From positions 1-63,326 of the forward strand of contig CAMVYG010000001.1 in the NCBI GenBank assembly GCA_947171615.1: a DNA stretch of 63,326 nt, read 5' to 3'. The notes under the pieces are model-generated. The model worked only from the letters and a program-made list of their open reading frames with translations. It made no database searches and was not told the DNA's origin. The stretch's first letter is position 1, and every line of letters begins with the position of its first letter. The DNA is from an uncultured Clostridia bacterium (GTDB lineage: Bacteria; Bacillota; Clostridia; Oscillospirales; Acutalibacteraceae). Positions 2,847 to 63,146 of this stretch are shown here, in pieces. The translations under genes were made by a program, and so were the position numbers.

Positions 2847-5800
2847 TTACTCAGCTGCCTCAGGCATGGTGATCTCGGTACCATAGAAGGTAGCGGGAAC
2901 ACTCAGAGAAGCGAACATCAGGTCGGCATAAGACCAGGTCACGGTATCGCCTACGATATCGGTGAAGGGGTTCTTAATGTCGGTGCTGTTCTTAATGGTC
3001 AGCTTCTCCTCAGCGGTGAGGCCCAGATAATGGTTGGTCATGGTAGCAGATTCCATACGCTTGATGTTAGCGCCAGCGCGGAAGGTGCCATCATTGTAAC
3101 CGTTGATGGTGCCGTTGTTGCACAGAGCAGCAACGTAATCCTTAGCCCAGCTGGAAACCTTATCAAAGTCGGAAATCTTATCGGTAGTGCCGCCCTTCTC
3201 AACCTTCACGCCAAAGGCCTTGGCGATCATGATGGAAGCCTCTTCACGGGTGATCTTGGCATTGGGACGAACCTTGCCGTCGCCGTCGCCTACGGTGATG
3301 CCGGCCTCCTCAGCGCAAGCAATGTAGGAAGTATACCAGGCATTGCCTACGTCGGTGAAGCTGGGCTTACCATAATCCTTTGTGGGATCATAGACGCCGG
3401 AAGCAACAACCAGCATCTTCAGCAGCTCTGCACGGGTGACGTTAGCGGAAGGACGAACCTTGCCGTCGCCATCGCCAACCATGTAGCCGCGGAATGCAGC
3501 GATCAGGGTGGTGCCGTCGTCGGGCTTATAGGTCTTGATATCGACGATCTTCTCTACAGAACCGTCTACAGACCAGCCTACGAACTCAGCGCCCTTCACC
3601 ACATTGGTGACCTTGGGCAGAGCAACGATCAGGCCATCAGCGTCAACTTCGCCCTCTTCGAACTCAGCCTTGCCGTAACCCATGGTATCGAAGCTGATGC
3701 CGGAGGTAACGGGCTGGCCCTTACGGTTAATGGGAGCGGTAACCTTTACGGTCTTGCCGGTGACATCGTTAAAGTTCTTACCCAGGGCAGTAGCGCCATC
3801 AGCAGAAGCGGCGAAGGTCAAATCGATCTTAAGATCCTGACCAGCCAGGCTGCTGAAGTCCCAAGCTTCCTCACCGCCTGCTACGGGCTCAACAGGAGTC
3901 AGTGCGGGAATGGTCAGGGTCTTTTCGTCGGGATCTTCACCAACAACAAACTTCACTTCGGCGGTAACTTCGCCAACTACCTTAACACCAACTACGGTAT
4001 CGCCTTCGTCGTTCAGAATGAACTCCAGACCAGCGGGGGCGGTAGTGCTGGTGTCAACTGCAGCGCCTTCCAGCTTAACGCCGGCAGGCAGTGTCCAGGT
4101 GCTGCCCTTTACTACTTCGCCCTCAACGGTCACATCCTCAGTGCCGTCAAAGGTGTTGTCAGAGGGCTCCTTGCTTTCGCCGCTGGCAGTGTAGATGGGT
4201 TCACCCAGATCCTTCAGAGCGGCCTCGATATCGGCATCGCTGAAGTAGGTTCCTACAGTACCCTGAGCATCGCCGAAGCCTTCAACCATAACGGGAGCAT
4301 TCTTGATAGCAGCGATCACAGCGTCCTTATCGGCGTTATCGGGAATTCTGCCAGCAGGAACATCAGCAGTGATGGTATTAGCATCAGCCTTCTCGATGTT
4401 ACCGGACAGAGTTGCGGGGAACTTGTAGTTCTCGCCATTGATCTCTTTCTCAGTACCCAGAGCGCTGGCGGGAGTAACCTTGATCTCAATGCCGTCTCCT
4501 GCGTCAGCGGTAGCATACTCGATGCCGGTGATACCGAAGTCTGCCAGGGTCACGTTGGGAGTAGTGATCTGGCCCTTGAACTCGGTAGTGCCGTCGTAGG
4601 TCTTGTTCAGGTTATCGAAGCTCACGGTGGTTACGCCCTTGCCAATGGTCAGGGCTACAGTGACGCTTACCACATCGGTGGTAGCGGGCAGAGTGAACTC
4701 GAAGGTAGCGTCGCTGCCGTCAGCACCGTTGTTTGTGATGCTGATGCCGGTAGCAGAAGCGCCGGTAACCTTTACGTCGCTCAGAATGCCGCCGTCCAGA
4801 GAAGCAGCAGTAACTGTACCAGTTACCTTACCGCCCAGGTTGGAAACGGTGGTTCCGGTTACATTGTCACCAGAATAGGTGGCAGTGCCGCCGGTGGTAT
4901 TCAGGGTGTACTTCGCTTCGCTTACTTCACCCTTAACACCGGTCACCTTACCGCCGGCGAAGGTGTAAGCAGATGCCTGAGCACCAGACAGGGTGGTCTT
5001 CAGGGTAACCTCAACATCATTGACAGTACCCTGAGTGGCAGAGCTCTTATACGTAGCGTCATAGGCCACGGTAACCTTGTCGGTGCCGACCAGGCCTTCA
5101 GAAGTAGTGAAGGTATAAGTGCCGCTTACCGTCAAATTGGTAGCGCCCTGCTTAATGCCAGGAACATTTGTGATCTTGGCAGCTGCAGGCAGAGTCAGAG
5201 CCTTCGCGGCCAGGTTAGCAGTGGTCTCAACCTCTTTGGTACCAACTGCGTTACCGGTGGAATCGGAAACAGCACACTTGATCTTCTTGCCAACTTCGCT
5301 GGCAGCAGGAGTGTACTTATTGCCGTTAGCGGTACCCTTTGCAGCAGCGCCGCCTACCGTCCATGTGTACTTGGCAGTGGTGGCATTGCCGCCGCTGTAA
5401 GTAGCGGTGATGGTCTCGCCGTATACCGGGCTCATCTTATCCAGCGTTACAGTACCAGTAAGAGCAGGCTTCACCGTAAAGGTCTCGGTGGTGCTGATCT
5501 CAGCGGTGGGATCGCCGGAGGTAGAGGTATGAGTGGCCGCAGCGGCCTTAATGGTATAGTTCTTAGCAGAATCCAGAGCAGAACCCTTAATGGTCAGTTC
5601 AACCTCGGTATCGCTCTTGCGGGTAACAGCGGTCACAGCGCCGGCTACCGGGCTGGAACCATCCATAACGGAGAAGTCAGCCGCAGCAGGGGCGGTAGCC
5701 CACTTACCGTTCTTCAGCGTTACCGTGATCTTAGCGGTATCCACGGGATTCAGCTTCTGGTTGGCAGCGATGCTGATCTTGGGATCGTTGGAAACGATCT

Positions 5801-6689: not shown

Positions 6690-6800
6690 AGTTTCCTCCA
6701 GTTTGTTTATATTTTTAGCCTTTTGAGACGAATCTCCCTAAGATTTTTCCTCCTCCTTCTTCTATCGGTTTCACTGTCAAATAGAACTAAGTAGTTTATT

Positions 6801-6880
6801 TCACAACTTTCTCCCAATGCTGCCGTTTTGAACAAGCAATTTTGCTGCTCAAAACGACAGTGGGGAAAGTGGAAAATCGT
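6801..6880 (-). promoter_or_regulatory. Conserved intergenic stem-loop, copy 1 (P4/P5 junction)
   Basis: ACTTTCTCCCA..CTGCCGTTTTGA-loop-TCAAAACGACAG..TGGGGAAAGT; homologous to 13163-13243. Confidence 0.7.
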
Positions 6881-6881
6881 A

Positions 6882-6942
6882 TGATTTTTCTTGCCGACTC
6901 CATCAGCGCTGTCTTCTCAAAGATGACAGCAGGAGAAAATCA
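6882..6942 (-). promoter_or_regulatory. Second hairpin immediately downstream of the P4 stop
   Basis: GCTGTCTTCT-CAA-AGATGACAGC inner stem, with outer TGATTTTTCTTGC / GCAGGAGAAAATCA pairing. Confidence 0.5.
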
Positions 6943-6966
6943 AATCTGTAAATGAAGCTTTACAAA

Positions 6967-7811
6967 TTAGAACCGCATCGGGGGAAGATCATAGGTTCTG
7001 TTTACGTAGGCGGTAATAAAGCCCGCGTCAACACCGTTGGAGTTGGTATCCAGGTCGATATCCATTGCTACGCGATACAGAGACGGTATAGCCGCTCCTG
7101 TCTCATCACGGAACGCATTAAACGTTCTGTTTACGTAAGCTGTAATAAAGCCCGCGTCAACACCGTTGATGTTGCTGTCCAGATCCACATCGCCTGTACG
7201 GTAACCAAGCTTTACATTTCTCGTGGCCACATACACGGAGGTTCCTACCTTCACCTTGTACTCGATCTGGTAGTATTCCGTGCCTCTTACTACAGAGCTG
7301 GTCGCAGCCGATGAGTCATAGTAGTTCGTCAGAGAATCTCCCGTATTGGGCTGAATATGGCCGTCTACCAACGCTGCGCGCTGGGTTCCGTAGCCATCGT
7401 CTCCCAATACCTTTTCGGTAATGGTGATCTCCACGTTTTCATTATTTGTCAGCACATCCGCAATAGGCGTACCGGAAACGCTTTCGATCAGCTTGCTGTA
7501 GTCTGCCTCGGTTCCTTCTGTGCCATCTTCCAGCAGATAGGGATTCGTATATTTCTCAACATACTCCTTTTTCCCTTCCTGCTCCAGCAGCGTTTCTTCA
7601 TTCTTGTTGCCTTCTATCTTGTAATAGAATACCAACTCATTTCTGAAGGACGCCGCATCTCTCTGGGCATCTTCGCCCAGCTCGGCATTCTCGGCATTCA
7701 GGTTGTCCAGATACTTCTGCGCCGCTGTCTTGGCGTTATCCGCCGCTTCGCTGTCCGGCTTCAAACTCTTCCATACATCGCTGTTGCCCTCTGTCAGCTG
7801 CAGGGGGTTCT
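6967..7811. repeat. Direct repeat copy 1 (3' end of P4)
   Basis: Aligns to 13253-14088 with one 9-bp indel; 7147-7432 appears identical to 13433-13718. Confidence 0.95.
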
Positions 7812-10800
7812 GGTTCTCCGGATTCTCCGGATCGTATCCAGTATACAACGAGATTGAAATAAATGCAACCTTATTTCCAGAATTTGTTACAGAAATTGCA
7901 TTTCCGGCTCCATCTGTAGCATTATTAATATCCAGACTTGCCTCCAGATAGAACTTTCCGTCTGTGGGAATGTTCTTCATGGCTTCCGCCCAACCGGTAG
8001 CGGTGGGAGAAGTTCCTTCTTCCGCATCTGCGGGAATGTAGTTGCCATCGATCTCTTCCGCGTCAGCAGCGGGATTGCCATCGGCGCTCTTCTTCAGTGT
8101 CCAGGAAACCTGAGGAGGTGTTCCGGTTGCCGTCAGAGGAATCACCAGAGCCTGAGTATTCACAGTGGTGGAAGCGCTGTTATAGCTGCTTACCAGATCC
8201 AGCAGATCCTGGTTTGTGAGCAGGCTGCCGGCATCGATATGAAGCTTTGCTACCTCAATATCGTCAAGGAGATCCAGAGCGCCGGAAACCTTCTCGTAGT
8301 CTGCGGTCTCCCATGCAGACTTCACCTTGGAAGACTCCTTGAAGCAGTAGGAAACCTTGCCGTCTACCTTGTAATCCAGACCGCTGAAGGGACTTACCCA
8401 ATCGGCAGCATCGATCTGCTTCAGGTCGTTATCGGGCTCCACCTTTACGGTTACATTTCCGGAGCCGTTTGTGCTTACATTGATCGTGGCGGTATCCTGC
8501 GTGCCCGCGAAGGGAGTTTCCAGCAGGAAGTACTTGATGTTTCCATTGGGATCGGGATACATGAGGATCAGATCGGTGGTGTCCCGATTGAATTCCGTAT
8601 CTCCGGTGCCTGCGTTGGTAACGCCGGTGATATCAAAGGTAACGGTGTAATTCTGAGGATTGTCCTTATCGTTATCATTTACAACCGTTGCCGCGCAGTG
8701 ATCGGGGGCAATGGTCATCTTTTCGGTATCGGCCTCATTGGTCAGGCTCAGGGCAACATTATTGGTGATATCATAGCCAGTATCGGGAGTTACCTTATTG
8801 GTATCATCCAGCTGGATCTCACTGATGATCTTTGCCTTGGCTGCCTCACCGGCGCCATTTGTAACATTTACTTCATTCAGAGGCGCGCTGGGATCATCGC
8901 CGGCCTCGGTAACGCTCTGGGTGCTGTACTGCGCCTTCAGCTGATACTCGGCGGGGGTGCCCGCAGCAGGCTCTGAGGTGGGGAAGAGCGCGCTTGTTAC
9001 TTCAGCGCCATCGTCAGCATTGAGCCACTTCTCCACGGTGGGATATACGCTGATGGTATGCTCCGCACCGGCACGGGCCACAAGGTCTCCCTCGCCGTCA
9101 CGGGTCAGGTGCACCGCAAGGGTCTTGGCGGTCTTGGGCAGGCGATCCTTAATGAGATCAAAGTCTACCGCACCGGCGGTCAGCGCTTCGTTATACTGCA
9201 TCTGGAGAGTATCGGGAGATACAGAGGGCAGGCCCTCGGCTGTCCAGAGAATATAATCTTCCACGTTGTAGGTCTTTTCAATGGGGAGAGAGGGGGCCAG
9301 GCCGGTAATGCCCTCGCCGGACTCTCTTCTCACGGTGTACCAGAGCTTGCCGCCCATGGGATCCAGAGCGGTGGCAGCATCTACGCCGTCATCCAGTTCC
9401 GCATCGAGAGCCGTCTGTGTATCATCGGTTCCCAGTTTCGCGGAAGCAATGTGGCCGCTGAGTGCGCCGCTCTCGGCGTCATACCCGGTGTAGATATCTA
9501 CAACAAGGTTCTGATAGCCGTCAGCCGCGGGACCATTGTGCACGGTGATCGCATCGGTCTTGGGATAGGGATTGTTCTGCGCGTTGGTATCGTCAGAACC
9601 GATGATCTCACTGGGCTTAGGCGTTTCTGTTTCATCATAGCGCTTTTCAACGATCTCCACCTTCTGAGTGATGGTGGGCTGTGTCCAGCTGGAAGGCAGG
9701 TTGATGGGCAGCTTGCTGCCGTCATTATTTACCTGGTCAAGAGCCTCCAGGGCATTCCAGTTTACCACGCCATTCTTCAGAGTGATGGTGAAGTTTTCGG
9801 GGTTATCACCTGTCGCGTTATGATCCCAGTTTGCGTTCTGATAGATGTTATCTGCCAGAGGCATGGACCAGGTAGCGGCAGGATCCTTTGCGCTGGCGCT
9901 GAGCTTATAGCCATAGGAAAGCTCAGGCGCAACCACGCCGGTCAGGGTGCCGATGTAATCAATGACCTCGGCTGCCGTGTAGGTATCGCCTTCGGCCTTA
10001 CCCAGAGCGGTCAGCATATCTCCCTTTACAATCTGCACGGTATCGGGAGCGGGATTCTTCACGTCAAACAGGAGATATTCCTCCTGCAGGGGTACCTGCC
10101 AATCAGGGTTCACAGGGAGAACCTTGTTGATACCGTCTGAAATCTGGGTGCAAATGCTCAGCTTTGTTCCCTTGTTTCTGGCGGTCTGCTCAAAGGCCAC
10201 TGTGTAATCCCACTGGGTATCCGGAATCTTTTCTTCCACGATGATGTTCGTATCGCCTGTCAGCGGATGTATTCCATAAGCAGTGCTGACAACATCGCCG
10301 TTTTCATCCTTCAGAAGAACAGAAACCTTACCGGGAGCTGCCTTCAAAGCATCGCTCAGTTCACCGGCGGTATCGCCTGTGATCTTCAGAACGTCCTTCA
10401 TGTCATTTTCCCAGGGAGCGTTTCTCTCCATGGAATAGGTGGCATTTTCAATGTTGATCTCGGTAGCCACCACAGCGTTGATCTTCACAACATGGGGATT
10501 GGGCAGCGGGTTGGTGTAATCAATTACATCCGTTGCGCCGGAGTGGGTCTTATAATCCGCGCTTTCGGGAATTTGAATATCCACGCGGAACAGATCTCCC
10601 ACATTCTTGCCTGCCGCATTCAATGTGTCGATATCAGACTCTGTGGCATTACCCTGATCGTCTACGGTATAGATCGTGGTATTTGCCAGAGCGTCATAGG
10701 TATCGCCGTCAGTGCCGATCCACTTCTTCAGGGCGGCGCTGGTAAGCTCGTATTCATGGAACTCCAGCACTCCCTCGTCTGTAAGGGGACCAACCACCTT

Positions 10801-13023: not shown

Positions 13024-13162
13024 AATTTCCTCCATCTTACTAGTTTTTTGATCTTTCCGGTCAGTTTTTCCTGCTCCCTTTTCCCTCCTTATTCTATTAT
13101 TTTCATTACCACAAGTCACTCCTCCATATCGAGCTTTCAAAATGAAATCAAATGGATCTATC

Positions 13163-13243
13163 TCACAACTTTCCCCCCAACGCTGTCATTCTGAGCAAGC
13201 AGTTCGCCGCCCAGAATGACAATGGGGAAAAAGTGGGAAATCT
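13163..13243 (-). promoter_or_regulatory. Conserved intergenic stem-loop, copy 2 (P3/P4 junction)
   Basis: ACTTTCCCCCCA..TGTCATTCTG-loop-CAGAATGACA..TGGGGAAAAAGT; homologous to 6801-6880 with compensatory changes. Confidence 0.7.
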
Positions 13244-13252
13244 TACGAGAGA

Positions 13253-14088
13253 TCAGAATCTCATCGGGGGAATATCATAGGTTCTGTTTACGTAGGCGGT
13301 AATAAAGCCCGCGTCAACACCGTTGGCATTGGTATCCAGGTCGATATCCATTACTGTGCGATACAGGGAAGCTATTGCTTCTCCCTTTTCATCGCAGAAC
13401 GCATTGAACGCCCTGTTTACGTAAGCGGTAACAAAGCCCGCGTCAACACCGTTGATGTTGCTGTCCAGATCCACATCGCCTGTACGGTAACCAAGCTTTA
13501 CATTTCTCGTGGCCACATACACGGAGGTTCCTACCTTCACCTTGTACTCGATCTGGTAGTATTCCGTGCCTCTTACTACAGAGCTGGTCGCAGCCGATGA
13601 GTCATAGTAGTTCGTCAGAGAATCTCCCGTATTGGGCTGAATATGGCCGTCTACCAACGCTGCGCGCTGGGTTCCGTAGCCATCGTCTCCCAATACCTTT
13701 TCGGTAATGGTGATCTCCGCATCTTCGTTACCGGCCAGCACATCTCCTATCGCGGTTCCGGCAATACTTTCAATCAGCCTACTGTAGTCCGCCTCGGTTC
13801 CTTCTGTGCCGTCTTCCAGCAGATAGGGGTTCGTATATTTCTCAACATACTCTTTGTTCCCGTTCTGCTCCAGCAGCGTTTCTTCATTCTTGTTGCCTTC
13901 TATCTTGTAATAGAACACCAACTCATCCTTGAAGGACGCTGCATCTCTCTGGGCATCTTCACCCAGCTCGGCATTCAGGTTATCCAGATACTTCTGTGCC
14001 GCTGTCTTGGCAGCATCCGATGCTTCGCTGTCCGGCTTCAGGCTCTTCCATACATCGTTGTTACCCTCTGTCAGCTGCAGGGGGTTCT
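13253..14088. repeat. Direct repeat copy 2 (3' end of P3)
   Basis: Encodes the same ~280-aa tail (NPLQLTEGN...PPMRF) as 6967-7811. Confidence 0.95.
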
Positions 14089-42682: not shown

Positions 42683-42794
42683 GTGAGCCACTCTCCTTAC
42701 TTTCTTGTATCAGCAGAATTAATTCTTGTGTTTATTCTTAAATTTTTCGCCACTTTCGGCGGCGAAGAACAATAGAAAAATAAAATTCAGGACT

Positions 42795-42857
42795 GGGCTG
42801 CCCTGAGCAGAGAAAATAAGAAGTTTTTCTCTTATTCTCTCTGCTCAGGGCGGTCCC
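42795..42857 (-). promoter_or_regulatory. Long intergenic hairpin between P2 and P3
   Basis: GCCCTGAGCAGAGAAAATAAG-loop-CTTATTCTCTCTGCTCAGGGC (~21-bp stem) with no adjacent U-tract on the coding strand; small extra hairpins near 42746-42767 and 42876-42891. Confidence 0.7.
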
Positions 42858-42900
42858 CCTTAGGGATCGCCTGAGCCCCGATAACTCGGGGATAGTTCAC

Positions 42901-54900: not shown

Positions 54901-55872
54901 TCCATCCGCCAGGCCTTCCACGGAAATGTGGATGGGATCGTTCTCGTCCCAATTCTTCAAATCGTCAATATGCTTCACATACTGGGGAGCCTGGCTTTCA
55001 TCGGTAGAGGTCCAGGGCTCTGTGCTCTTCTTGACCTGGTAGCCTACATCGATGGTTTTGCCCCGTCCCTTTTCCGTAAGGTACAGGTCAAATTCGGCCT
55101 TGCCTCCGGTAGCGTCGGGAGAGTTCACCAAAACACCGGTGGTCACCTGGCCATCGGGAACATCGTCCTCATATTTGCTGTCATAGCTCTGGGCGTAATC
55201 GCTCTTATAGTCCATGACGGCGCTTTCCTTCTCTACCTCGCCCTGGGCATAGCTGTAGAACTTGAATTCACAGGAATACGAGGTATAAGGCTTTTTGATC
55301 AGATTGCCGGCAGTAGGCTTCTGGGAGCTGTATGCCACAATAGTAAGCATGCCCTCGCCATGGGTATTGCCGCTTTCCTGATTAAAATAAACGCTCAGCT
55401 GCGACATGAGAGAATCGAAAGTACCCTTCGTGATCGCTTCTCTGGAGCGATACTGGAAGGACTGGTTTCCCTTAGGCGCAACGTTGGAATCGGGAGTAGC
55501 GGCCTGCCACTTGCTGCCCGGCTCCGCGGCCAGCACCAGCGGGGTGCTTCCGTCTCTCTTGATCGTATCGGAATACACTTCTATGCTCTGCACCTTCTGC
55601 ATTTCATTGGTGCCCACAAAAATGCCTTCCGACTGGAAATTGATCACGTCTGAAAGGGATGCGGAGATCTGCCCACGGTTAGGTGTGGACTGAGAGCTTC
55701 CCTTTACGGTGATCTTGAAGCTGGCTGATGAGCCGAAGCCCCAATCACCCCAATCCCATGCAAAGGCGGAGGTGCCGCTCACCACAGTGAACAATAGTAC
55801 CAGCGTCAGGATTGAGACAGCCAATCTTCTGCCAAATTTTCCTTTCTTGAAACTAGCTTTCATCTTACTCAT
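42901..55872 (-). CDS. P2: giant secreted mosaic adhesin-like protein (4323 aa) with C-terminal X-module plus dockerin (type II-like)
   Basis: Start moved from 55980 to ATG 55872 (AGGAGG at 55883-55888; signal peptide ending VSGTSAFA). Ig-like DxTAP modules, divergent InlB-B repeats (FTITPDLGYKL), FN3 (GLTPGRWYHLQVVARN), Calx-beta-like (YGFARSNYSYEE...IFIQDDE); dockerin loops DINGDQVVDNSD / DFNEDGTVNALD. Confidence 0.9.
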   Translation of the reverse strand: MSKMKASFKKGKFGRRLAVSILTLVLLFTVVSGTSAFAWDWGDWGFGSSASFKITVKGSSQSTPNRGQISASLSDVINFQSEGIFVGTNEMQKVQSIEVYSDTIKRDGSTPLVLAAEPGSKWQAATPDSNVAPKGNQSFQYRSREAITKGTFDSLMSQLSVYFNQESGNTHGEGMLTIVAYSSQKPTAGNLIKKPYTSYSCEFKFYSYAQGEVEKESAVMDYKSDYAQSYDSKYEDDVPDGQVTTGVLVNSPDATGGKAEFDLYLTEKGRGKTIDVGYQVKKSTEPWTSTDESQAPQYVKHIDDLKNWDENDPIHISVEGLADGETYDIRGIVCTDGREDAPKQTGELSFSYQKPKINSFNIGGITSVYQGGKGLMNLSMLTTFNDTNAVGVGEYQGINGRTYNGPALQADIYFTTNRDFEVTGTDENGKEIYGEDHSIWYMISDYSDIKEMADEEGEIATTYTKDWKNFKIPATLEDIGVEGNTAPINSDRCAFKLVITDLYTGYTAVTYSDPFIIDSAPPSRPEVVAESGGTEIDLSLESEAVVGGTSENGSAQVSINIGDSDDQGGSGIKQYSYSMYYLPTDKVPASLTTTGDVLRLLQTYTPTAPGASDYKEWTALETKLDDAGNPVENMTELVVAKDGYYRVIARAEDKAGFISEEVEGYFRVDLTAPDSPVARLAKREDSTFKAYDNRTYTNSEVWAFAYSKPQTGKALKSFKFSTNGGLTWTDISTVAADKKIVKFDNVTETIPTYKDAGCTQEEGFVYQVGINLTGLGYSDYISLLIKAVDSLGNESMVSNEVHMRTASEVETVATLSHDPIEVAMALGNTNLEPERNIVPLKIRAAKMINEKYYGTSGSTTIGATNFNPYLYTQSHTCTYATDSGTGSCTQGASCPYNRVETAGYSIYKPEWINISGLSSGTGAMKITDWNVYDHDTRTGTNVALNDNGYVHAYTDAHARNNGDNGESQPSSSGGSACMQRRRHIIDMSSRKDWSEILFTGVSENPDSDWLFYHFTQPTKKSILFTMNTAACNFHTYVQSGFWFNTTIRKNKAGTYVVSGYRLMIRQGAGSWGLTDVTGSTQNCGLEIQKFTDMPVTSLHCGGGGNIGSTVATANLTGTGAAIQNFMIDLTGSDVTVYQIEGTLSSSNFTQQYFRGHGRKVPGLTNIPISRPTVDGYTIGDTTNASNPYRDSDCYGFGPAIGYSSHSCDRETRVTFSNVTLYCNVAKTLSEVVTEPSWGEGKARFILNVTNDAQQDFHDPALTSQIQWRLNNDKARYIGWGISQERTTVINFLKRMAGQNATADEIAKYGMYENVSSIGANQGTAQEFTDIATYITQQYYAELGFDASSGAPPIKDQVSPGGGIEKGMSYTLDNVSNLHFTVYPPERAESSANPDFPAGRWYMVHDPKGMGDEVDIRSGKLSDALNTDITLPGRYTYYFAPSEEDIKNNTLDPDNAVFDFVINQKPQAQFAANIVDQGGTKYLQIADVAYDPDCPEGPYIDTDGTKLSGIVKTEWKYQFLMKSGSSLVIPKESGWSTTSPDGMTLKSLTGYDTLPTNSVLTIYQRVTDTATRRVAVKDSNGKVTGYKYVATNGAVSDVCQANATEGVSITYAPQSAMILAPTTMYDTASDPNSPHRTVTIERVSTHPQGNYFTPSWAINLTEMGVDGTDKDTGYTQLTKSGNNYTYKGEVALRCVQAPTPTGNIGNGTTGSEGGKWEVSYDFIKKYGGIDKHIKFQLTEKTWGISAATAAAGKTDKDFIPDQSARSILLAKDVNPPSSQVVTTGTQVPGSDELIDYAASTYLDVTNDDRFVVVSVGGSKDNEGVLKGYGYYFYDVKNGVETAWYRMESDGRLTKVSSAKAATQTLPAIGGRVKIGKSAMRKLPDTPTDSLNIAVFAYDNQTGMSTETTANQTTKTRITDIKLSVSQPMPPEISVTNMMNQNVAYISNENGYKTAIEAGKTDEQTSALEFYSATNVTVQFTPRKAKFIMDSNGDLQLNAGGQEYYQDYYGKADMTGTADIRYTVKYKARKTDKEWWTDDQLLANGMDKMPVDATMSAAQALTYTHDGVYEVTGAVVNGSGNVSETRTVRFTIDKTAPTGLEVSFTNMADGSPYFSGIWTKSVSIEAHGATDTNADTAEYQYSIDGGKTWIKLGDLTQTSASIEFDKSGKYNVKVRAVDKAGNESIYEQNMLVCIDNTPPETNGPTLTATSVMTDVLNEYVISLDYDTKAGAVHSEQNGVVNQLDREVAVPAGGSVIFTFLPEDGHILGSVTYNGEDMTGRLQANEETGIEYLEITNVKKDTVLSVTFPETQLEKASYRTMTRSLAAVQYAVARTASVNEPETDIALTAEAGDEGETGESELELMYNVSVYELDSFGSATVTPNQVIPGEKALITMSPLPFYRVASLQVNKEIIDVSTLTKVPGSNQRTYEITVNGDTNIFVGFEAIETRPLRLDSSDCGTTTIRDEEEQIRNNGDGTYEVPVGAVLNIQMDAEEGYGSESLKIDGTQPEDFQSGASLYQYTVPAFTGEGEDPGIAVEIKYNVLSKAKRKFKVYVGESTEDGQTHGTINACGDEVFIPIGGARTFTITPDLGYKLAHLYLTTTMDGESTTTEVMGTEGFYQMPGELRQYKYTLTDSGSSGELQAIFERQTYAATNSVSRGGDIVFKKANDENLYAPAIPEGTDVLIKVRPKDGYRVKSLSITEIENGQPVNQYSVGAVTSYVLPSIHSNIRVDAVFVEREVDHIETMHVINAVANNVKDADDALAEAPYRFCIADAQEGAANRHASKWSAWSASNTITYTGSYTAEDGTEIVLEPNKQYFVYLQARDRVGNVSKAMVSTVYSYANMPGTLGAEALDEEGNYASKSVALQVNTSGNPEDTEYLVYYSTSSSMANMQIANSDEPGGGWSTLQPDGTFLIKGLTPGRWYHLQVVARNKDGYSTRLNSDDITSILLSPAAPPEDSFWFEEQESPVAPISLGWNAPSGDILGIHLYLDGVYIGQRKLGTNEFTHVRSDFLGDSVGKYSYAYENSAGVGSSRVAISKEYYDVITSTAAEDADKRVKMDTLTNEYEYMFSETMTYPTFHAGSRQIYASAQGSETSGQIEVEMRFDTTYNARYQKYFLVLKAYEKEIGEDGEPVLDEEGDPIYHEVTIDQWDPEFKYHDRGSTKQKAVETKVSQKLGTTAARAIWTNLSTLYEYNIYAEEIRSTGKASSDNLSGSTQGLEFALGKVYIVNRDGYRYEYTSDNTEPKLDTYSSAWKGDELAAYAVNGWDTPVNNGYITFQKSPSIELAAEADRYYDNDGEKIRTDESGKPYILVDNSMDNKNFHVNVAAWDPDGYREESGTIPAVGGSIAKIPGNAPKLTGKMPARQEDAVKRENLYPITFDASGLSTGVYSSMEMWASDSDTRTERTTDDLKLIVNRNLAECKVVGDTHILLENGEYYLKDDLVKTVATAASDGSASTDLTKVALLVMPEEYQAAFGTSNYDELYRILVTEGHADPVAKAKELLGDDAGNSKYVTGGKLTEAGMNLAVARVAPPVVKYVAITEEQYNARIATAPDKLMKEENKETRYWAELDYALDEGICSWLVKDEKDSTQVIPTVDLKPTDAENTYFVKVVAKFGGNESVQTVSFVIRPAPYTKIRSQKAFRWIDTAQKEYEHYQVEDYTIDAIIEKYKHCYDPNDIIFEDPLPDSDKAYTTRVENGKTKYYVYKLYDYEGSVDNSEIAGTIEVNLGVYEQFDEVGVLLVTEPPSDFHPNFVNDESEFPEGYVIAYSESTNRNIPIRKSGDQRFTASQLVPGQTYYLWSFYKRPDDVRRYSEGHVVLTTVGDFELARYGFARSNYSYEEKQYDSEGTLLPFDINKVGSKKASATVRVTPRYYQSDEFGNLILGEDGEPIELTGDALEAAKETFGFDSGKEYETYTFGLTESRKSIRLRLRNTDKTQGHMVVRLEMDIESSDAGYCYVIEGSGYSDIFIQDDESPVTSYVLGVVNEDDNGKPFLKEVSTNGKLLHYEYQLSGLQVGYSQLSHVIFPYENIGTGDLENITVKTYKLNADGSQSDEESREIIAEQPSHTNLKVQLPEQGTVEIRPAANLADGVYEAWVVLTADHVKEPVRIKVRQVVGQSTLRGCIGIRPLENGELSHIDRRSRTGVAKVLLYDAETAKVDNNGDFVSEPDYVTETSEYGGAFEIPNILNAGKYSQGKYYIVVERDGYITYNARKLRPNRNVYSLDLGSESHTYTFDLRLIGGDINGDQVVDNSDMEILVSHYNMSVNLPGFTDQEREIVRLCDFNEDGTVNALDRGFLIGNMNSKARDYPTDVKKYYPIPADDQ

Positions 55873-55907
55873 GAAAACTTTACCTCCTTTTCGTTCCCGC
55901 GCGTTGG

Positions 55908-58900
55908 TTAGGCAATGCCAGCCGCGCGTAGGACATATGCATAAGCCCAGTGTGTCCTCTTGATATCGATAAAGGGACAATAGGCATACTTCTGAATGTT
56001 ATTGTGCTCCAAATCGTTCAGAGCGTTCTTTGTGATCATAACGATCAGCTTGATCGCTTCCGCTCTGGTGATCCGGTTTTCCGGGCGGTAGGTGCCGTCC
56101 TCATAGCCGTCTACCACCTTGGCTTCCAGCAGCGCTTCAATATATTTTTCATACCAGGAGCCGGGCCTTACGTCCTCAAAGGTTCCTGATTTTTCCGATG
56201 TGAGCCCGGCGGCATCCGCCAGAATTCTGGCGGCCTCGCCTCTGGTAATATAGGCATTGGGGCGGAAGGTGCCGTCCTCATAGCCGTCTATAATCTTTTT
56301 CTGCTTCGCATAGGCGATGGCGCCCGAGTACCATTTGCCCTGCGCCACATCCTTGAAGGACTTCCCGTAATTTTTCTGGGAATCGAAGCCTCCTATGGCC
56401 CTTACCACCATGGAAACAAATTCCGCTCTGGTGACCTTATTTTCCGGGCGAATGGTTCTGTCTCCATAGCCTTCCAGGAATTTCGTATTGGTCACGTCCT
56501 TATAAACCGCCACGTAGGTGAGATCGGAGAACACTGCCACCTTGGTGGCGTCCACTACTATTTCACCGTCTGAGGTCCAGCCTACAAAGCCGTAGCCCTG
56601 CACCGTTTTTACACCCGGCGGGTTCAGAGGGGCTTCGCCGGAGCTAATGGAAACCTGGCTTTCACCAACCAGCTTTCCGTACTCCCCGGCGTCAAAGGTA
56701 ACGGTAACGCCTGTGTTGTAGGGCCGGTGCACGCTGATCTGGGAATACTCATAAATTCTGCGGGACGGATCGTTCATAAACCCGGTATCGAGCACCAGGC
56801 ATTCCAGAAGAATTACCTTGTTGGAAATGAAGCTTTCCGGCTGAATGGTAAGGGTGGTGGTCCTATCAGGCGCATCCTCCTTTATCACCAGGAAGTCGTC
56901 GGGCAGCCGTTCGTTGCCCTCTTCGTCCAGCTCTTTGATATAAGGAAGATAATTCCCTTTCTCATCCTTCTCCGGCAGCTTCAGGTTCCACTGTATGGCC
57001 GCATACCCGTCGTAGCGGCCGCCATACTGGTCGTAAACCACAGGATATACATAGTCCTGAATGGGCTCTCTATTGCCGCTGATCACAAAATCTCTGTAAG
57101 TGCGGTTGATCTCCACCTTGTAGGCGCGAGTCTCTTCCTGGGCAATAGGCACGATCAATCTCTTAAAGCCCGCTTCGCCCAACGCCTCATACTTTGCCGT
57201 AAACGCCAGCTTATCAAGACAGTCGCAGGCCGTATAGAGGGTAAGGTTTCCTGTGGGACAGTCAAATTCTGCCAGAAGGGTTTTGGAAAGGATCTCCGGC
57301 GGAGGCGGCTCCTGTTCGCCGTCGTCTTCCAAGCCGTCTTCGGGATCGGTCTCTTCTCCCGAACCGCTCTCCGGGGGCGCTTCCTTGTACACCACCTGAT
57401 AGATTTGATATCCCACGGGGGAATTGCCGTTTTCCGCGCTTTCGCCCCGGCGGTAAACCTCTTCTACCAGAAGATCGTCCCGGCCTTCCAGCACAGAAAG
57501 ATCCATATCCATTTCAATTTCACAGTCCTCTATGGGAGCGCCGTACTGATCGTAGACCACAGGATCGAAAGGATAAACCGTTGTTTTCGCCTCAGCATAG
57601 GGCCGCTTTGCCGCTATGCCCACACCGTTTTCATCAGAACCTGTGATATAAAGATAGGTGGCTTCCGCCTTATCCCGGCGAAGATCCAATGTCAGGGTCT
57701 TTACAAAGTCTTCGTCATCTTCCATATTGGTGGTGGTCAGCCGGAGCGTCACCTTTTGGCTCATCTTTCCGGCAGGCACCGCCCGGTTGGTGATGGCGAA
57801 GGTCACATCCTCTCCCTCGGCAATGCCGTCGCCGTCCGGGTCGCCCGAAGCAAACTCCACGCCTTCGTGGTCTCCCACAAATTCCCATACAGGGTGGTAC
57901 AGATCAGATACCACCTTCATCCACGCGCCGTACTGGTCTACTACCTCGGCTCTCAGGGTAAGCTCCTCTGCGTGGTCTTCGTCCGGCTTATTGGCCAGCT
58001 GTCTGCTGTTCCAATAGGGAATATCAAAAGTATACTGGTTGCTTTCTGCCAGCGCCAGCTCATAAGCATAAGCTGTGCCCTTGCTCAAAACTATCAACAG
58101 AGAGCTTTCGTCCCGAAGGCTTTCGGGCTCACCCTTGGGAGTGGACTGCAAAGTAACCATCATTGCCGTTGTGTTGGATTCTATATACAGAGTTCCCCTG
58201 TTGGTACCGGGAGTCTGGCTGAGCCGAAGTCCGGGAGACATGGTGGCAAGCTTGATATCCGCCGCTTCATTGGGCATTTCTCTGCCATACTGGTCGTATA
58301 CCTTTGCCTCTATGGTAACCGCTCTGGCGGGATCTCCCTTGGGAGGTACCACCGGCTTTACCACGCCGCCTTCGATCACGGACTCGTCGCCCGGGTCAGT
58401 CATAACAGGCACCGCATAGGCGGGCTCGGCGTCATCCAGGCTCAGGTGAACCCTGAGATCTCTGTACACACCGGCGTCATCCGCAACGGAGCCCCGCAGG
58501 GTAAAGCCCAGATCCTGGCCGTTCCGAAGGGCATCCATGGCTTCAGCCGTATAGTAAACACGCACCATACCGGCGTATTCATCGAACATTTCCGCTTTCA
58601 CGCCGCTGCTGGGGTTTTCCACCGTCCAGCGCACCATTTTGGAAATAGGATTTTCAAACTGATCCCGCACGATCCAGACAGCCGTGTAGGTTTCATATCC
58701 CCGGCCCGCCTGAGGAGGAAGGGGAAGGGTCATTTCATATCCGGCGGGAACCGCCTGAACCTTACCGGCGGAATTCTTGATATTGGTAAACTCTACCGAT
58801 CTGGGCGCCAAAGGCTCATCCTGACGAATGCCGAGATAAAGGTCGCTTTTCAGGGAACCGCAGGTGGCCGTGATCTTCACGGAGCCCGGAGAAGCCGTAT

Positions 58901-61900
58901 GATCGATGGTCACGGTTTTCTCCGCGGCGTTCATGGTCACGCCCTTGGGCAGCGTACCGGCGCTCCATTTTACCGGCGCGTCCTTTTCTTCCAGAATCAC
59001 GCCGTACTGATCCCGCACATACACTCTCAGCGGCACGGTTTCTTTTTTCCCGCTTTCGGGGATCTGCACGCCGTCGTTGTAAGGGGCGAAATCTCCGGGG
59101 AAATACAGGGTAGTCGGCACGGAAGGATCTCTTGTGATCTTAATGGTCTTCGTTGCCTGACGGCCGTTTTTGCAGATGACCGTCACCGTCATTTCCTGGG
59201 GAATATTTCTGGCAAGCACAGTGCCGTTAAATTGCAGCGCGCCGCCGGAGGTCAGGGACACCACATTTCTGGCGTTATAAATACCGCCGTTGGAATCAAA
59301 GGGGATATCTCCTGTGATCACCTCTACCTTTCCACCGCCGCCATTGGGGTCGTCTATCTCCTTCACCCGGTATAGGGTGGCGTCGGGGAATTTGACCGCG
59401 TCAAGGCGCCATGTTAATTCATTCTGCTCAAACACCTGGTCCTCGCCATACTGCGTCGTACCGGAGGCGGTCAAATACCGCATACCGGAACCGGAGGAGG
59501 GATCTGAAAGGAAGGGGATCTCGGTTTCTTTGATTTCAACAAAATCGGGATAGGCAGTCTGCCTGCGCACCTGCACGGTAACATTCAGAGAACGGCTGCT
59601 GCCGTTCTGCGCCATAACGCTGGTGATGAACACATCGCAGTTAGGCGCGCATTTTTTCACGGTCAGTTCGCCTGTCTGTGAATCCACGCTGATGTAATCC
59701 TTGGCGGAAGCGGGGGTAACAGTGTATCTCCATGTGGATTTGCAATCCAGGATCCGTTCATCATACTGGTCGTAAACCTCCACAGAAGGGGCATACACAG
59801 CGTCCGTTCCGCTTTTGATGGGAGGAAGAATGCTGTTGGTGGTGTTATAGACCAGATTCCGCATGATAGTGGGCTTGCTGGGCTCCCGCTTGATCTCTAC
59901 CGTTACCGATTTGGAACGGCAGGCGGCAAATTTCGCATAAATCTTAAAGGAAGAGGTTCTCGCCGTGCTGTCCACCGTAATATAGGGGTTATTGCCTGTT
60001 GTCAGGGTAACGCCCGGGGGCAGCTCGCCTTCCACGAAAACGCTCCAGGGTTCGATCTCGTTCCCTTCCGGGTTCAGGGGACTTCCGGGCTTGTAGGCAT
60101 CCATCACAGCGTTCCAATCCCACTGGCTGCCATACTGGTCCACCGCAATAACGGTCAGGCGGTTATCCTGCTTGCCCTCTTCCTTCAGGGGAACCATAAA
60201 GGTATACCCTGTCTGGTGATCCGGGGGAACCACAAGGATCTGCTGAAGGATTCGGGGCTGTCTGGTAAATTCGAACTGATATTCCACAAACCGGGACCAA
60301 CCCTGATAGGTGGCGGTGATCCGCAGGTTGAAGCGGGAGCCATCCTTTGTGTAGCTGTTGTAGGTGAATTTTCCCTGGTTAATATCCGCCACAGAAATAC
60401 CCTGAGGCAATTCATCGTCCGGATAAGAGACTTCATAGGAAATGGTGTAGCCCTTAGCCCGGGCTTTTGCCAAATCGATGGCCGTGCCGGAGGTGTTTCT
60501 GATCCCTGAAGCCAGATCATATTCCGCAAGCTCCTTGGTGCTCAGATCGTCTTCCGGATTTCTCCACTGGTTGGCAAGCTCAGCGATCAGAATATTTTCC
60601 GTGTTGGTGACCACCTTATAATCATCAAAGGTACAGGGGGGCACCTCGTACACCACCTGATAAACAGTACCCTTTACTCCATCCTCCTCTACCTCTTTCT
60701 GATCCACCATGGTGTGGGGATTGGTCGGGTAGGTTTTCATCAGGGTCAGTTTATCCTTGGGCTTACTGACAAATACGGGAATCTCCTGAACCACATTGGC
60801 GCCCAGAGGCTCTGAATAGGTCGCCCGGAGAATATGCTCTCCTTCCACCACATCATTTACGCCTCTGTATCCCCTATATATAATAGTATACGAATTTTCG
60901 CTTTTCTGATTTATTTCAAAGGGACAGGTTTTTCCAGCCGCATCATAGAGTTTCTTCGTTTTTTCTGTAGGAACCAGCTCCAGATTCGCCCATTTATCAT
61001 GATAGACGGCACGGTACTGGTCGAGAAGCCGGGCATGGATCTCAATCCCCGTGGAAACAGCGTCTTCGGGGGTTTCCTCGCCGGAGCCGTCCAGCGCGGT
61101 ATTTCCTACCCAGAAGCCCTCTACAGGCTGTCCGTCGGAATTGGTGATATTTTCCACCACGCCCTCTGTATCCACAGAAATCGAAGTGGGGATCGGATCT
61201 GCCTTATACAAGGCCAGAAGCGTATCATCGCTGTAAATGGGAGTTCCCTCCGGATCGTAAATGACCCGAAGCGAGATTTTGGTTTTTTGCCCTCCCGTAA
61301 TGCTGTCCGCCCCATTGGTATACCAAAGATAGTTATCCAGGTCGGCGGCGTCATGGGTAATATGGAACTGGGGAGCGGGAATGTCGCTGCGGACAATTTC
61401 CTTTGTGCCGCCTGCCTGGAAGTGATCCCAGTATGTGATCTCCGTGGGGATCATATCCAGCACAACGCCCACCGGCGTTCTCATCATGTATTCGTCCAGG
61501 CTGGGATCTTCAGGAACCCTCGCCTTGTAGACGGTCCACAGCTTTTTGCCCTTGAGGTGCGCTTCTTCAGACCGGTTCCCCGTAAAGGTCGCTTCCTTTA
61601 CACGGTAATACTCATTATTGTAAGTGGGGATCAGCCTGCCCTCGCCGCTTTCCTCCGTGATCTCACAATCCTCCAGGGAAAGCCCTTCCTCTGCCAAAAA
61701 TTCCCATTTCAGGCCGGTAAAGTACTCTTCAAAGCCATCGTGCTCGGGAGAAGAGATAGAGGTATCAGAGGTGCTGGTCATGATAAAGTATTTCAGCGGC
61801 GGGCGCTTGCCGTTGCCCTGGTAGCTTTCCGGGATCCAGTTTTCGTCCTCGTCGTTCTGCTGGGACAGCTCATAATCGGGAATGCTGTACCGGGGATACC

Positions 61901-63146
61901 GCTCGCTCTCCACCACCATACCGGAGGAGTTGGTAGGCATCTCAAAGTCCGGGTCTTCAACAGGCCTTACATCGTCCGGATCATCCGGGTTCTCTATGGT
62001 ATCACCCCGAACGGTGTTGTTGCTGTCCACCAGAAGATAGTCTACAACATATCTCTTATCGAAATTCTCATACCAGACGCCGGGAGCGGTTTCTCCCAAA
62101 ATCTTCTGAGCGGGATTTTGGCTCCATGAAACGCGGCTGGCGACCCCATTCTTTTTCCACGGGGTAAGCTGGGGCTCGTCATAATAGTAAAAGGCCTGGC
62201 CTTCCACCACATCATAGGTTTCCCAATCCAGATATCGCTGAATGAAGCCTGCGCCGCCCATAGCCAGGGGCACCGTTTTCCCGGTGGAATCTTCATAAGA
62301 GAACTGGTCAACGATCTCCCTGGCTTCCCGCGCTGTCTGGGGAACCTGAATAGACCCTGCGGAAAGGCCGTCCGTATTCTGAGCTACAACGCCGTTTTTG
62401 TAAAGGCGGAAGTCCAGATCGATCACGGTGGCATAGCCGTCTTCCTCGATCTCCGGAGAGTGGCCGCCAAAGCAGTAGAACTGGAGATAACAGTCCAGCA
62501 TTGTGGTTTCGCCCTGCTGCATTCTGGTGCCGGACACCATGTAGCCCGTGTAGTGGTCCAAAAAATCATTTTTTGCGCTCATAGCCTGATTAAAAAGGCC
62601 GGTGTTAGAAACGATTTTGGCCTTTTCAGACTTCATGAATTCCTTCATGGAGGCGGGCATCGTGTCGGCGTCGGAGGCCACAACTGCGATCTGCCCGTTG
62701 AAGGGGTAAATTTCTCTGCGTTCTTCTTTATTATAAGGAGGCTGGAAGTCGGCGCGGGGATTGGTGATGGGTCGCACCGTGCTGGCGTCTGTCTGGAACA
62801 CAAAAACGCCTTCCTTCAGCTCCTCTTCATCCTCACCGGGCTCTACCCTGATTTGCAGGCTCATGGTAAGGATACCGGTTTCCGGATCAAACCCGGTCTG
62901 AATAAACCGCATTTTCGTATCGGGCAGTTCCAGATTTAAAAGCTCCGGAGCGTCCCCGGCCTCTTCCGTATTCTCTACATCGGCATCATTCTCCGCGACG
63001 GCGGAAGAAGGCGTTTCGTTATCGAAAGACGACGCAACATCCTCGCCCATTCTTCTGGACGCCTGGGCAGCAGGAGCTACAGGCAATCCGTAAATTGCCA
63101 GAAGCAATGTCAGAATGAACGCAACCACTCTTCTCCAATGTTTCAT
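55908..63146 (-). CDS. P1: secreted SLH-anchored protein (2412 aa); putative cohesin-like head A, about 10 DQYG repeats, InlB-B-like repeat, 3 SLH domains
   Basis: Start moved from 63239 to ATG 63146 (GGAGG at 63156-63160; signal peptide MKHWRRVVAFILTLLLAIYGLPVAPAAQA). SLH motifs EGYGDRTIRPENKVTRAEF, DGYEDGTFRPNAYITRGE, DGYEDGTYRPENRITRAE. Confidence 0.92.
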   Translation of the reverse strand: MKHWRRVVAFILTLLLAIYGLPVAPAAQASRRMGEDVASSFDNETPSSAVAENDADVENTEEAGDAPELLNLELPDTKMRFIQTGFDPETGILTMSLQIRVEPGEDEEELKEGVFVFQTDASTVRPITNPRADFQPPYNKEERREIYPFNGQIAVVASDADTMPASMKEFMKSEKAKIVSNTGLFNQAMSAKNDFLDHYTGYMVSGTRMQQGETTMLDCYLQFYCFGGHSPEIEEDGYATVIDLDFRLYKNGVVAQNTDGLSAGSIQVPQTAREAREIVDQFSYEDSTGKTVPLAMGGAGFIQRYLDWETYDVVEGQAFYYYDEPQLTPWKKNGVASRVSWSQNPAQKILGETAPGVWYENFDKRYVVDYLLVDSNNTVRGDTIENPDDPDDVRPVEDPDFEMPTNSSGMVVESERYPRYSIPDYELSQQNDEDENWIPESYQGNGKRPPLKYFIMTSTSDTSISSPEHDGFEEYFTGLKWEFLAEEGLSLEDCEITEESGEGRLIPTYNNEYYRVKEATFTGNRSEEAHLKGKKLWTVYKARVPEDPSLDEYMMRTPVGVVLDMIPTEITYWDHFQAGGTKEIVRSDIPAPQFHITHDAADLDNYLWYTNGADSITGGQKTKISLRVIYDPEGTPIYSDDTLLALYKADPIPTSISVDTEGVVENITNSDGQPVEGFWVGNTALDGSGEETPEDAVSTGIEIHARLLDQYRAVYHDKWANLELVPTEKTKKLYDAAGKTCPFEINQKSENSYTIIYRGYRGVNDVVEGEHILRATYSEPLGANVVQEIPVFVSKPKDKLTLMKTYPTNPHTMVDQKEVEEDGVKGTVYQVVYEVPPCTFDDYKVVTNTENILIAELANQWRNPEDDLSTKELAEYDLASGIRNTSGTAIDLAKARAKGYTISYEVSYPDDELPQGISVADINQGKFTYNSYTKDGSRFNLRITATYQGWSRFVEYQFEFTRQPRILQQILVVPPDHQTGYTFMVPLKEEGKQDNRLTVIAVDQYGSQWDWNAVMDAYKPGSPLNPEGNEIEPWSVFVEGELPPGVTLTTGNNPYITVDSTARTSSFKIYAKFAACRSKSVTVEIKREPSKPTIMRNLVYNTTNSILPPIKSGTDAVYAPSVEVYDQYDERILDCKSTWRYTVTPASAKDYISVDSQTGELTVKKCAPNCDVFITSVMAQNGSSRSLNVTVQVRRQTAYPDFVEIKETEIPFLSDPSSGSGMRYLTASGTTQYGEDQVFEQNELTWRLDAVKFPDATLYRVKEIDDPNGGGGKVEVITGDIPFDSNGGIYNARNVVSLTSGGALQFNGTVLARNIPQEMTVTVICKNGRQATKTIKITRDPSVPTTLYFPGDFAPYNDGVQIPESGKKETVPLRVYVRDQYGVILEEKDAPVKWSAGTLPKGVTMNAAEKTVTIDHTASPGSVKITATCGSLKSDLYLGIRQDEPLAPRSVEFTNIKNSAGKVQAVPAGYEMTLPLPPQAGRGYETYTAVWIVRDQFENPISKMVRWTVENPSSGVKAEMFDEYAGMVRVYYTAEAMDALRNGQDLGFTLRGSVADDAGVYRDLRVHLSLDDAEPAYAVPVMTDPGDESVIEGGVVKPVVPPKGDPARAVTIEAKVYDQYGREMPNEAADIKLATMSPGLRLSQTPGTNRGTLYIESNTTAMMVTLQSTPKGEPESLRDESSLLIVLSKGTAYAYELALAESNQYTFDIPYWNSRQLANKPDEDHAEELTLRAEVVDQYGAWMKVVSDLYHPVWEFVGDHEGVEFASGDPDGDGIAEGEDVTFAITNRAVPAGKMSQKVTLRLTTTNMEDDEDFVKTLTLDLRRDKAEATYLYITGSDENGVGIAAKRPYAEAKTTVYPFDPVVYDQYGAPIEDCEIEMDMDLSVLEGRDDLLVEEVYRRGESAENGNSPVGYQIYQVVYKEAPPESGSGEETDPEDGLEDDGEQEPPPPEILSKTLLAEFDCPTGNLTLYTACDCLDKLAFTAKYEALGEAGFKRLIVPIAQEETRAYKVEINRTYRDFVISGNREPIQDYVYPVVYDQYGGRYDGYAAIQWNLKLPEKDEKGNYLPYIKELDEEGNERLPDDFLVIKEDAPDRTTTLTIQPESFISNKVILLECLVLDTGFMNDPSRRIYEYSQISVHRPYNTGVTVTFDAGEYGKLVGESQVSISSGEAPLNPPGVKTVQGYGFVGWTSDGEIVVDATKVAVFSDLTYVAVYKDVTNTKFLEGYGDRTIRPENKVTRAEFVSMVVRAIGGFDSQKNYGKSFKDVAQGKWYSGAIAYAKQKKIIDGYEDGTFRPNAYITRGEAARILADAAGLTSEKSGTFEDVRPGSWYEKYIEALLEAKVVDGYEDGTYRPENRITRAEAIKLIVMITKNALNDLEHNNIQKYAYCPFIDIKRTHWAYAYVLRAAGIA

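Follow-up and report, generated by a model that had tools for sequence, protein, structure and literature searches.

What would five giant exported proteins build if their ends carry the joining modules of a cellulosome and none of them contains a recognisable catalytic family? This question is raised by contig CAMVYG010000001.1 of an uncultured Clostridia bacterium of the family Acutalibacteraceae, in which five long open reading frames (P1 first, P5 last) occupy positions 2847-63146 of the minus strand. The window analysed in this work is the entire contig (63,326 nucleotides). It belongs to an 85%-complete assembly of 2.3 Mb (GCA_947171615.1), which is denoted G000 in the genome comparisons. 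We consider it probable that these proteins are enzyme-free exported giants that use two predicted orthogonal cohesin-dockerin pairs to form a head-to-tail, wall-anchored stalk with P2 at its tip.

Five giant proteins and their ends

The limits 2847 and 63146 are exactly the stop codon of P5 and the ATG of P1. P1, P2, P3, P4, and P5 have 2412, 4323, 9809, 2018, and 1280 residues, respectively. All five proteins begin with a basic-hydrophobic-AxA N-terminus that resembles a signal peptide (read by eye), and the gaps among the five genes are all shorter than 300 bp. The C-termini of P1 and P5 consist of three surface-layer homology (SLH) domains (Pfam E 1e-34 and 1e-25). The C-terminus of P2 is a dockerin (Y) that scores above the Pfam cut-off (30.7 bits), as it does in 9/9 orthologues. 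P3 and P4 have a common tail (65% over 444 residues; 90.7% DNA identity over 846 bp) with a dockerin (X) that lies at the Pfam cut-off (25.3 and 22.5 bits; 16 bits in another scan). At the N-terminus, P1 and P3 carry head A, and P4 and P5 carry head B (60% identity over 300 residues). The first-pass annotation had described five co-oriented secreted giants with these ends, and the Pfam matches and the N-termini bear it out. The features of the locus are as follows.

55908..63146, minus strand: P1, head A (cohesin-like), ~8-12 immunoglobulin (Ig)-like repeats of the P3 type and three SLH domains; likely a short wall anchor
62163..62921, minus strand: head A of P1, homologue of the P3 head (hhalign)
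56052..56477, minus strand: SLH triplet of P1 (Pfam)
42901..55872, minus strand: P2, mosaic (Big_13, FN3, PKD-like, X-module-like) with dockerin Y; likely tip or cargo
42970..43152, minus strand: dockerin Y, type II-like, asymmetric, conserved (Pfam and profile matches)
13253..42682, minus strand: P3, head A, ~80 Ig-like repeats and the common tail with dockerin X; predicted stalk
41798..42601, minus strand: head A of P3, predicted type II cohesin fold with insertions (AlphaFold2, Foldseek, VIA)
15284..41317, minus strand: P3 array, 80-83 repeats of ~105 residues with a D-Q-Y-G motif (repeat profile)
13286..13480, minus strand: dockerin X of P3, symmetric (Pfam and alignment)
12127..14088, minus strand: first X-B junction cassette, P3 tail, spacer with hairpin and P4 head
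6967..13023, minus strand: P4, head B, unannotated middle and dockerin X tail; optional adaptor with one putative cohesin and one dockerin
7000..7194, minus strand: dockerin X of P4 (Pfam and alignment)
5790..7811, minus strand: second X-B junction cassette, P4 tail, spacer with hairpin and P5 head
2847..6689, minus strand: P5, head B, stalk domains and three SLH domains; likely wall anchor of the long chain
5790..6608, minus strand: head B of P5, predicted cohesin-like sandwich, hypervariable among genomes (AlphaFold2, Foldseek, VIA)
3051..3491, minus strand: SLH triplet of P5 (Pfam)

It is unlikely that an assembly error doubled the tail, since other mouse-gut assemblies span the region from P5 through P4 to the end of P3 and break at both tail copies. 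The long plus-strand open reading frames antisense to the giant genes were treated as shadows.

The P3 array has 80 repeats at domain E<0.01 (83 in total). The repeat number is 79-83 in 9/9 orthologues, and the length of P3 is conserved. P1 has repeats of the P3 type as well, 7-10 of them by the repeat profile. A profile of 13 repeats has an S-layer protein domain (4uid, E 4e-7) as its best match in the PDB. The repeats at 15284-41317 alternate between two types, where similarity is higher at even lags.

The absence of enzyme domains that had been noted at first reading was upheld. No catalytic family was identified in the five proteins by Pfam or NCBIfam, nor in 20 orthologues (8 of P2; 12 of P1, P4, and P5) by Pfam. 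The profile of nine P2 sequences matches solely FN3/Ig and dockerin chains in the PDB, except for one weak match (E 0.2). Residues ~800-1480 of P2 (encoded within 44000-53500 of the window) are conserved and belong to no family; by eye they resemble a vWA-type domain with a beta-rich insert of variable length, and they are a candidate ligand-binding region.

Heads, dockerins and the pairs they may form

The heads of P1 and P3 are not significantly similar in pairwise comparison (z 1.8, where 18/300 shuffles are equally high). Their homology is evident at the profile level, where hhalign of the two orthologue alignments (16 and 10 rows) gives a probability of 95.7 and E 1e-8 over 208 columns, and the P3-head hidden Markov model (HMM) matches 9/11 P1 proteins. 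The proposal of a common head A therefore holds for profiles and not for pairs of sequences. For the P3 head, AlphaFold2 gives a model with a pTM of 0.79 from a 12-row alignment. Foldseek returns 11 matches of this model at E<=0.001, all of them to type II cohesins and headed by that of SdbA, and the best 16 rows of VIA are all cohesin entries (top Z 8.7, rmsd 3.6, 148 aligned). The model thus predicts that head A, which has ~270 residues with insertions, adopts the nine-stranded jelly-roll fold of a type II cohesin. This call was modelled on the P3 head alone, and the P1 head is covered through homology.

The AlphaFold2 model of the P5 head (8-row alignment) has a pTM of 0.73. Cohesins account for 6/7 Foldseek matches at E<=0.001 and for the top three rows of VIA (Z 9.8, 9.4, and 9.0; best rmsd 2.8, 134/135 residues). 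Head B is predicted to be cohesin-like, tied with pilin domains. Both heads are divergent from the cohesins of PF00963 and have large insertions. No similarity between A and B was detected by hhalign (probability under 1), and head B gives a weak signal to an ordinary cohesin on another contig of G000, C17 (probability 18, E 0.0013). Our own HMMs identified exactly one head in each locus protein scanned, and with them the G000 genome shows no A, B, X, or Y module beyond those of the locus.

Two calcium-loop/helix repeats are present at the C-terminus in both Y and X. Dockerin X is symmetric, with two D-x-D-x-D loops in all 13 aligned rows, and the best PDB match of its profile is the dockerin of the Ruminococcus flavefaciens adaptor ScaH (E 1e-5). 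The profile of nine P2 proteins has the type II chain of CipA (2b59_B, E 0.008) as its best dockerin match, and the P2 tail alone matches the type II dockerin 2y3n_B. The CipA match of Y and the type II cohesin matches of head A suggest that A and Y are of the same type. Five dockerin matches were identified in G000, namely P2, P3, P4, a leucine-rich repeat (LRR) protein, and a subtilase, and a glycoside hydrolase family was found in 0/5 of them (Pfam/NCBIfam). Across the genus, one or two dockerin matches occur in 50/57 genomes, often in proteins of ~450-560 or ~1650-1740 residues that are unrelated to the locus.

The X-tail, the spacer, and the B-head form a single DNA unit that is present twice. 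Head B is hypervariable (19-29% identity between most genomes), and the recognition positions of dockerin X change in nearly every genome. Copies from one and the same genome are more alike, at 79-100% identity for X and 59-96% for B. G447 and G448 each have the same dockerin on P3 and P4, and their two B heads agree at 92-96%. At least six B/X types are found among the nine units compared. The similarities of B and X are correlated over these nine units (Mantel rho 0.73, p 0.006), and their correlations with P1 are 0.07 and 0.02. The nearest neighbours for B and X also agree (G000-strainB, G402-G450, and G433-G416), where strainB combines three protein records whose sole link is the equal size of their source contigs (84,960). 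Among the seven genomes with all parts, the values are 0.53 for X-B (p 0.08), 0.92 for Y-A, -0.01 for Y-B, and -0.18 for X-A. Since X and B vary together against the P1 tree, the pairing of X with B is supported, and that of Y with A follows by elimination. Binding of X to A is hard to reconcile with the fast change of X while A is conserved (39-85% identity of the P3 head across genomes). The wiring proposed at first reading is hence favoured over the crossed one, except that P4 is not an obligatory link as it is absent in G433.

Comparison of G402 with strainB indicates how the cassette may move. P1 (99-100%), the P5 body (92-100%), and parts of the P4 middle (98-99%) are nearly identical between them. 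Both B heads are 20-44% and the X tail is ~45% identical, and the strainB alleles are near those of the window. In run X11, the P5 body is 95-100% window-like and switches to unlike sequence at 5801, which is the edge of head B. The uncovered parts of runs X9, X11, X12, and X13 were left out as evidence. Judging from these sequences, X-B is probably a duplicated cassette that is exchangeable between lineages.

The proposed stalk and its rivals

In the proposed assembly, the five proteins would be exported via Sec, and P5 would be fixed to the wall through its SLH domains. Head B would receive dockerin X, which would come from P3 or from one or several P4 units. Head A would receive dockerin Y of P2, and this could happen at the far end of P3 or on P1 as a short SLH anchor. 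The genes lie in the order of this chain, where the gene after each dockerin-coding end begins with the presumed partner head. Exchange of X-B would make the basal joint strain-specific and leave the tip joint conserved. The minimal chain would be P5-P3-P2, because P4 is absent in G433 and P5 directly follows P3 there. If X binds B in G447 and G448, their identical X and near-identical B would permit P4-P4 or self binding and P3 bypassing P4. The mass of P5, P4, P3, and P2 together is ~1.9 MDa (108 Da per residue). An Ig domain measures ~4 nm, so the stalk would reach ~0.3-0.5 micrometre if extended, with ~330 nm from P3 alone. Our best guess is a role in adhesion or long-range contact, where P2 would target mucus, particles, or cells. 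A bolder version of this assembly is tentative and, in our judgement, somewhat doubtful: a new class of Gram-positive appendage, namely a fibre of 1.9 MDa or more that is joined through calcium without any sortase, with giant subunits of one socket and one plug each assembled in gene order, a self-polymerising extender that would tune its length, an allele-specific basal lock-and-key cassette, and an interchangeable tip protein. Through the cassette, a cell would capture only those secreted stalks that match its own allele, which would amount to privatisation of a costly shared structure or to kin discrimination.

Several observations weigh against the proposed stalk. Pfam Cohesin PF00963 matches neither head, nor anything else in the window. 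The TM-scores of head B are low (0.25-0.32 of query) because of its insertions. The X-B correlation falls to the above rho of 0.53 (p 0.08) without the composite strainB and G416, and related genomes are non-independent in all of these correlations. The co-variation of Y with A is confounded with the species tree, as Y correlates with the P3 body (rho 0.80) as well as with the P3 head (rho 0.90). As X and B are DNA neighbours, their joint exchange may be hitch-hiking without selection for a binding pair. Exchange also reaches beyond the cassette, since P3 itself is a mosaic in the related strain of runs X11 and X13. The two B heads of G000, which are 59% identical, may differ in specificity.

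The dockerins might also bind scaffoldins encoded elsewhere, which the first reading had named as a possible refutation. G000 (on contig C17) and G448 do carry three ordinary cohesins outside the locus. Pfam detected no other cohesin in 3/5 carriers examined, a sub-threshold one in one carrier, and a C17-type cluster in G448. Outside scaffoldins are thus not general partners unless they are invisible to Pfam too. The C17 cluster (L001:8880-18028) adjoins a LytTR/GHKL two-component pair and encodes a 202-residue cohesin with a hydrophobic N-terminus, a 1544-residue cohesin-dockerin-LRR protein, and a 1261-residue protein with a cohesin and SLH, with one cohesin in each; the set in G448 is similar. 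Contig C19 (L002:10838-17470) encodes a 2211-residue S8 subtilase with a PA domain, an internal dockerin-like insert, a weak cohesin-like domain, and SLH.

The closeness of head B to pilin and adhesin domains of the CnaA type, among which SpaP and PrgB reach Z 8.7 in VIA, leaves the prediction of a cohesin fold for both heads clear for A and qualified for B. It also opens an unlikely alternative, in which joining by cohesin and dockerin is limited to A-Y. Head B would then be a ligand-binding adhesin domain of the CnaA/pilin fold that varies under diversifying selection, and the dockerins of P3 and P4 would find their sockets in head A or in a cohesin that has escaped recognition. Adhesins typically have variable heads at the N-terminus, head B is hypervariable between most genomes, and a further allele in run X11 switches exactly at the domain edge. 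However, cohesins are ranked first by both Foldseek and VIA, X varies with B and not with A, changing recognition positions of X fit a conserved A badly, and the conserved Lys/Asn pair of an isopeptide bond is not evident by eye in the B alignment. Binding of X to a cohesin-like head B therefore remains our preferred reading of the basal joint.

Two further alternatives, both improbable, accept the joints and dispute what they build. Much of P2, including residues ~800-1480, and all of the P4 middle have no family match and could hide activity. The wiring could then be right but serve a long-reach enzyme or nutrient arm, an extreme variant of a cellulosome or mucinolysome with a catalytic or glycan-binding module invisible to Pfam in P2 or P4; we regard this as quite unlikely. 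A family relative, Limousia, does build mucin-degrading cohesin-dockerin complexes (PMC12997984). Nevertheless, a catalytic family was found in 0/9 P2 and 0/5 P4 proteins, the P2 profile returns FN3/Ig and dockerin chains as described above, and one cargo protein on a single-socket chain leaves no room for enzyme synergy. The other alternative, which is less credible still, is that the proteins form short two-protein displays (P1-P2, P5-P3, and P5-P4) or a loose meshwork, where P4 is a duplication by-product that may close on itself. It draws on the loss of P4 in G433, on the two copies of one DNA cassette that bound P4, and on P1, which alone could take all P2. Against it, the P3 head A is conserved and tracks Y, which suggests that this head is used, the P4 middle of ~1300 residues is unique and retained in at least six genomes, and P3 keeps its length.

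Distribution, neighbours and related systems

The P1 head is present in 11/57 other genomes of the same genus. It was found in 0/400 sampled family genomes, head B in 0/200 sampled family genomes, and the Y profile in 0/400 sampled order genomes at E<=1e-8; these sets are samples and not proof of absence. A search for related loci returned nothing useful, with 0/121 candidates, then 1/586 in genomes (a weak Bacteroidales match) and 2/600 in metagenomes (short loci). The order P1-P2-P3-P4-P5 is whole on a single contig in G402, G447, and G448, and G433 has P1-P2-P3-P5. The contigs of G450, G449, G445, and G435 break in the P3 tail, where the P4 and P5 pieces of the former three lie on other contigs. 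The locus of G416 is split over two contigs, and the contigs of G415 and G444 end inside P1 or P2. The gene order is conserved wherever contigs reach, and P4 is optional. P1 homologues are labelled Acutalibacter sp. or uncultured Neglectibacter sp. by their sources, which suggests that the bacterium belongs in that genus or close to it; no 16S gene was found in the assembly. At least half of the words of stretch 2900-9000 occur in 7 runs, or in 6 runs of 4 studies (5 mouse gut) when the possible source is excluded, and no RNA run is among those listed.

A divergently transcribed RCC1-propeller-SLH gene upstream of the locus is full-length or nearly so in 10/12 carriers, and only the SLH portion of it remains in G435 and G447; 1/46 non-carriers has an SLH-level match. 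It is a candidate sixth component. In G000, this gene is C68:7601-9466, and synteny with G402 places it next to the right end of the window. We do not favour a mobile-element origin, because the upstream neighbours (the RCC1-SLH and glycyl-tRNA synthetase genes) are conserved across carriers. The downstream neighbour varies (rlmD in G000, lepA in G402 and G450). The rlmD-type RNA methyltransferase gene region lies at 353-1582 / 1670-2520, and the spacer attracts many loose contig ends, which suggests small multi-copy elements in the spacer downstream of P5. Overall, the promoter and terminator signals scanned for in 1-14000 did not exceed chance. Two further features lie between and after the genes.

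42800..42850, minus strand: conserved intergenic RNA hairpin in the P2-P3 gap (z -6.95, compensatory changes)
2766..2795, minus strand: terminator-like hairpin with a T-run 3' of P5

The P2-P3 hairpin has compensatory changes at 14/22 pairs across 8 genomes. Related long hairpins are found in both X-B spacers (13160-13245 and 6790-6880, z ~ -7.5); the X-B spacers of G448, G447, and G416 hold different hairpins, and G402 has none at its P3-P4 and P4-P5 spacers. The intergenic hairpins are not genome-wide repeats. Stem-loops tune the cip-cel operon through selective RNA processing and stabilisation (PMC4423207), and this operon resembles the locus in having strong intergenic hairpins within a cohesin-dockerin operon. 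By analogy, the P2-P3 hairpin may set subunit ratios.

One of the closest known systems is the SdbA/OlpB/Orf2p-CipA system of Acetivibrio (Clostridium) thermocellus. Its anchor protein likewise has SLH domains and a single cohesin at the N-terminus; the model of head A is closest to the SdbA cohesin, and dockerin Y resembles the C-terminal type II dockerin of CipA. In contrast, the docked protein of the locus is a non-catalytic mosaic of 4323 residues and not a multi-cohesin enzyme scaffoldin, its cohesin of ~270 residues with insertions is invisible to Pfam, and the same head is carried on a 1-MDa rod.

Another is ScaH, which has one cohesin and one symmetric dockerin and provides the closest PDB match of X. 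The ScaH dockerin recognises ScaE and its own cohesin (PMC5301203), ScaH is described as a variable-length spacer (PMC12484212), and monovalent adaptors have been suggested to build fibre-like structures (bioRxiv 10.64898/2026.02.05.704116). SLH-anchoring and monovalent adaptor scaffoldins are defined classes, the latter with one cohesin and one dockerin (PMC11557425). P3 (A and X) has the make-up of a monovalent adaptor, as does P4 (B and X) if B is a cohesin. ScaH is listed as a bare cohesin-dockerin adaptor of a cellulosome, whereas P4 and P3 have 2018 and 9809 residues and belong to an enzyme-free operon with an exchanged cassette. The Limousia mucinolysome and the Ruminococcus bromii amylosome are likewise non-cellulolytic cohesin-dockerin assemblies of gut Clostridia (PMC12997984, PMC4611034). 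They have many dockerin-bearing glycoside hydrolases, and Limousia also has multi-cohesin scaffoldins, whereas none was found in the locus. The dockerin-rich giant proteins of Omnitrophota are of a different build (bioRxiv 10.1101/2023.11.21.568195).

The predicted order of base, shaft, and tip with a long Ig-repeat rod also calls other surface structures to mind. Sortase-assembled pili and giant Ig-repeat adhesins (LapA and SiiE) follow such an order, where a long Ig rod projects a distal protein. Unlike those of sortase pili, the joints here would depend on calcium and involve no covalent bond, and SLH domains provide the wall anchor. None of the locus proteins has an LPxT[GA] motif within its C-terminal 60 residues, and a sortase gene would not fit into the gaps of the operon, which are below 300 bp. 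As for a cellulosome, an SLH-anchoring cohesin scaffoldin is represented by P1, and by P5 if head B is a cohesin. No multi-cohesin scaffoldin was found, with one head per locus protein and one cohesin per C17 gene, and Pfam and NCBIfam assign no glycoside hydrolase family to any of the five dockerin proteins in this 85%-complete genome. As read from these modules, the locus is neither a cellulosome nor a sortase pilus, and it would work both as a chain of anchoring scaffoldins and in the manner of a pilus. Its parts have precedent in SdbA and the self-binding ScaH, and its scale and cassette are apparently undescribed: no description of them or of the locus was found in the literature searched, in which subscription papers are thinly covered and the supplementary scaffoldin tables of PMC11557425 could bear on this.

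Such systems may be missed since cohesins with large insertions escape Pfam. The X-B pairs would widen the toolkit for designer scaffolds and mechanostable linkers, and this natural series of divergent, probably orthogonal cohesin-dockerin pairs would make the evolution of binding specificity testable. If the proposed stalk is true, a gut genus spends ~60 kb on using the joints of the cellulosome as pure architecture, and a structure of pilus length would be built from some of the largest surface proteins in Firmicutes.

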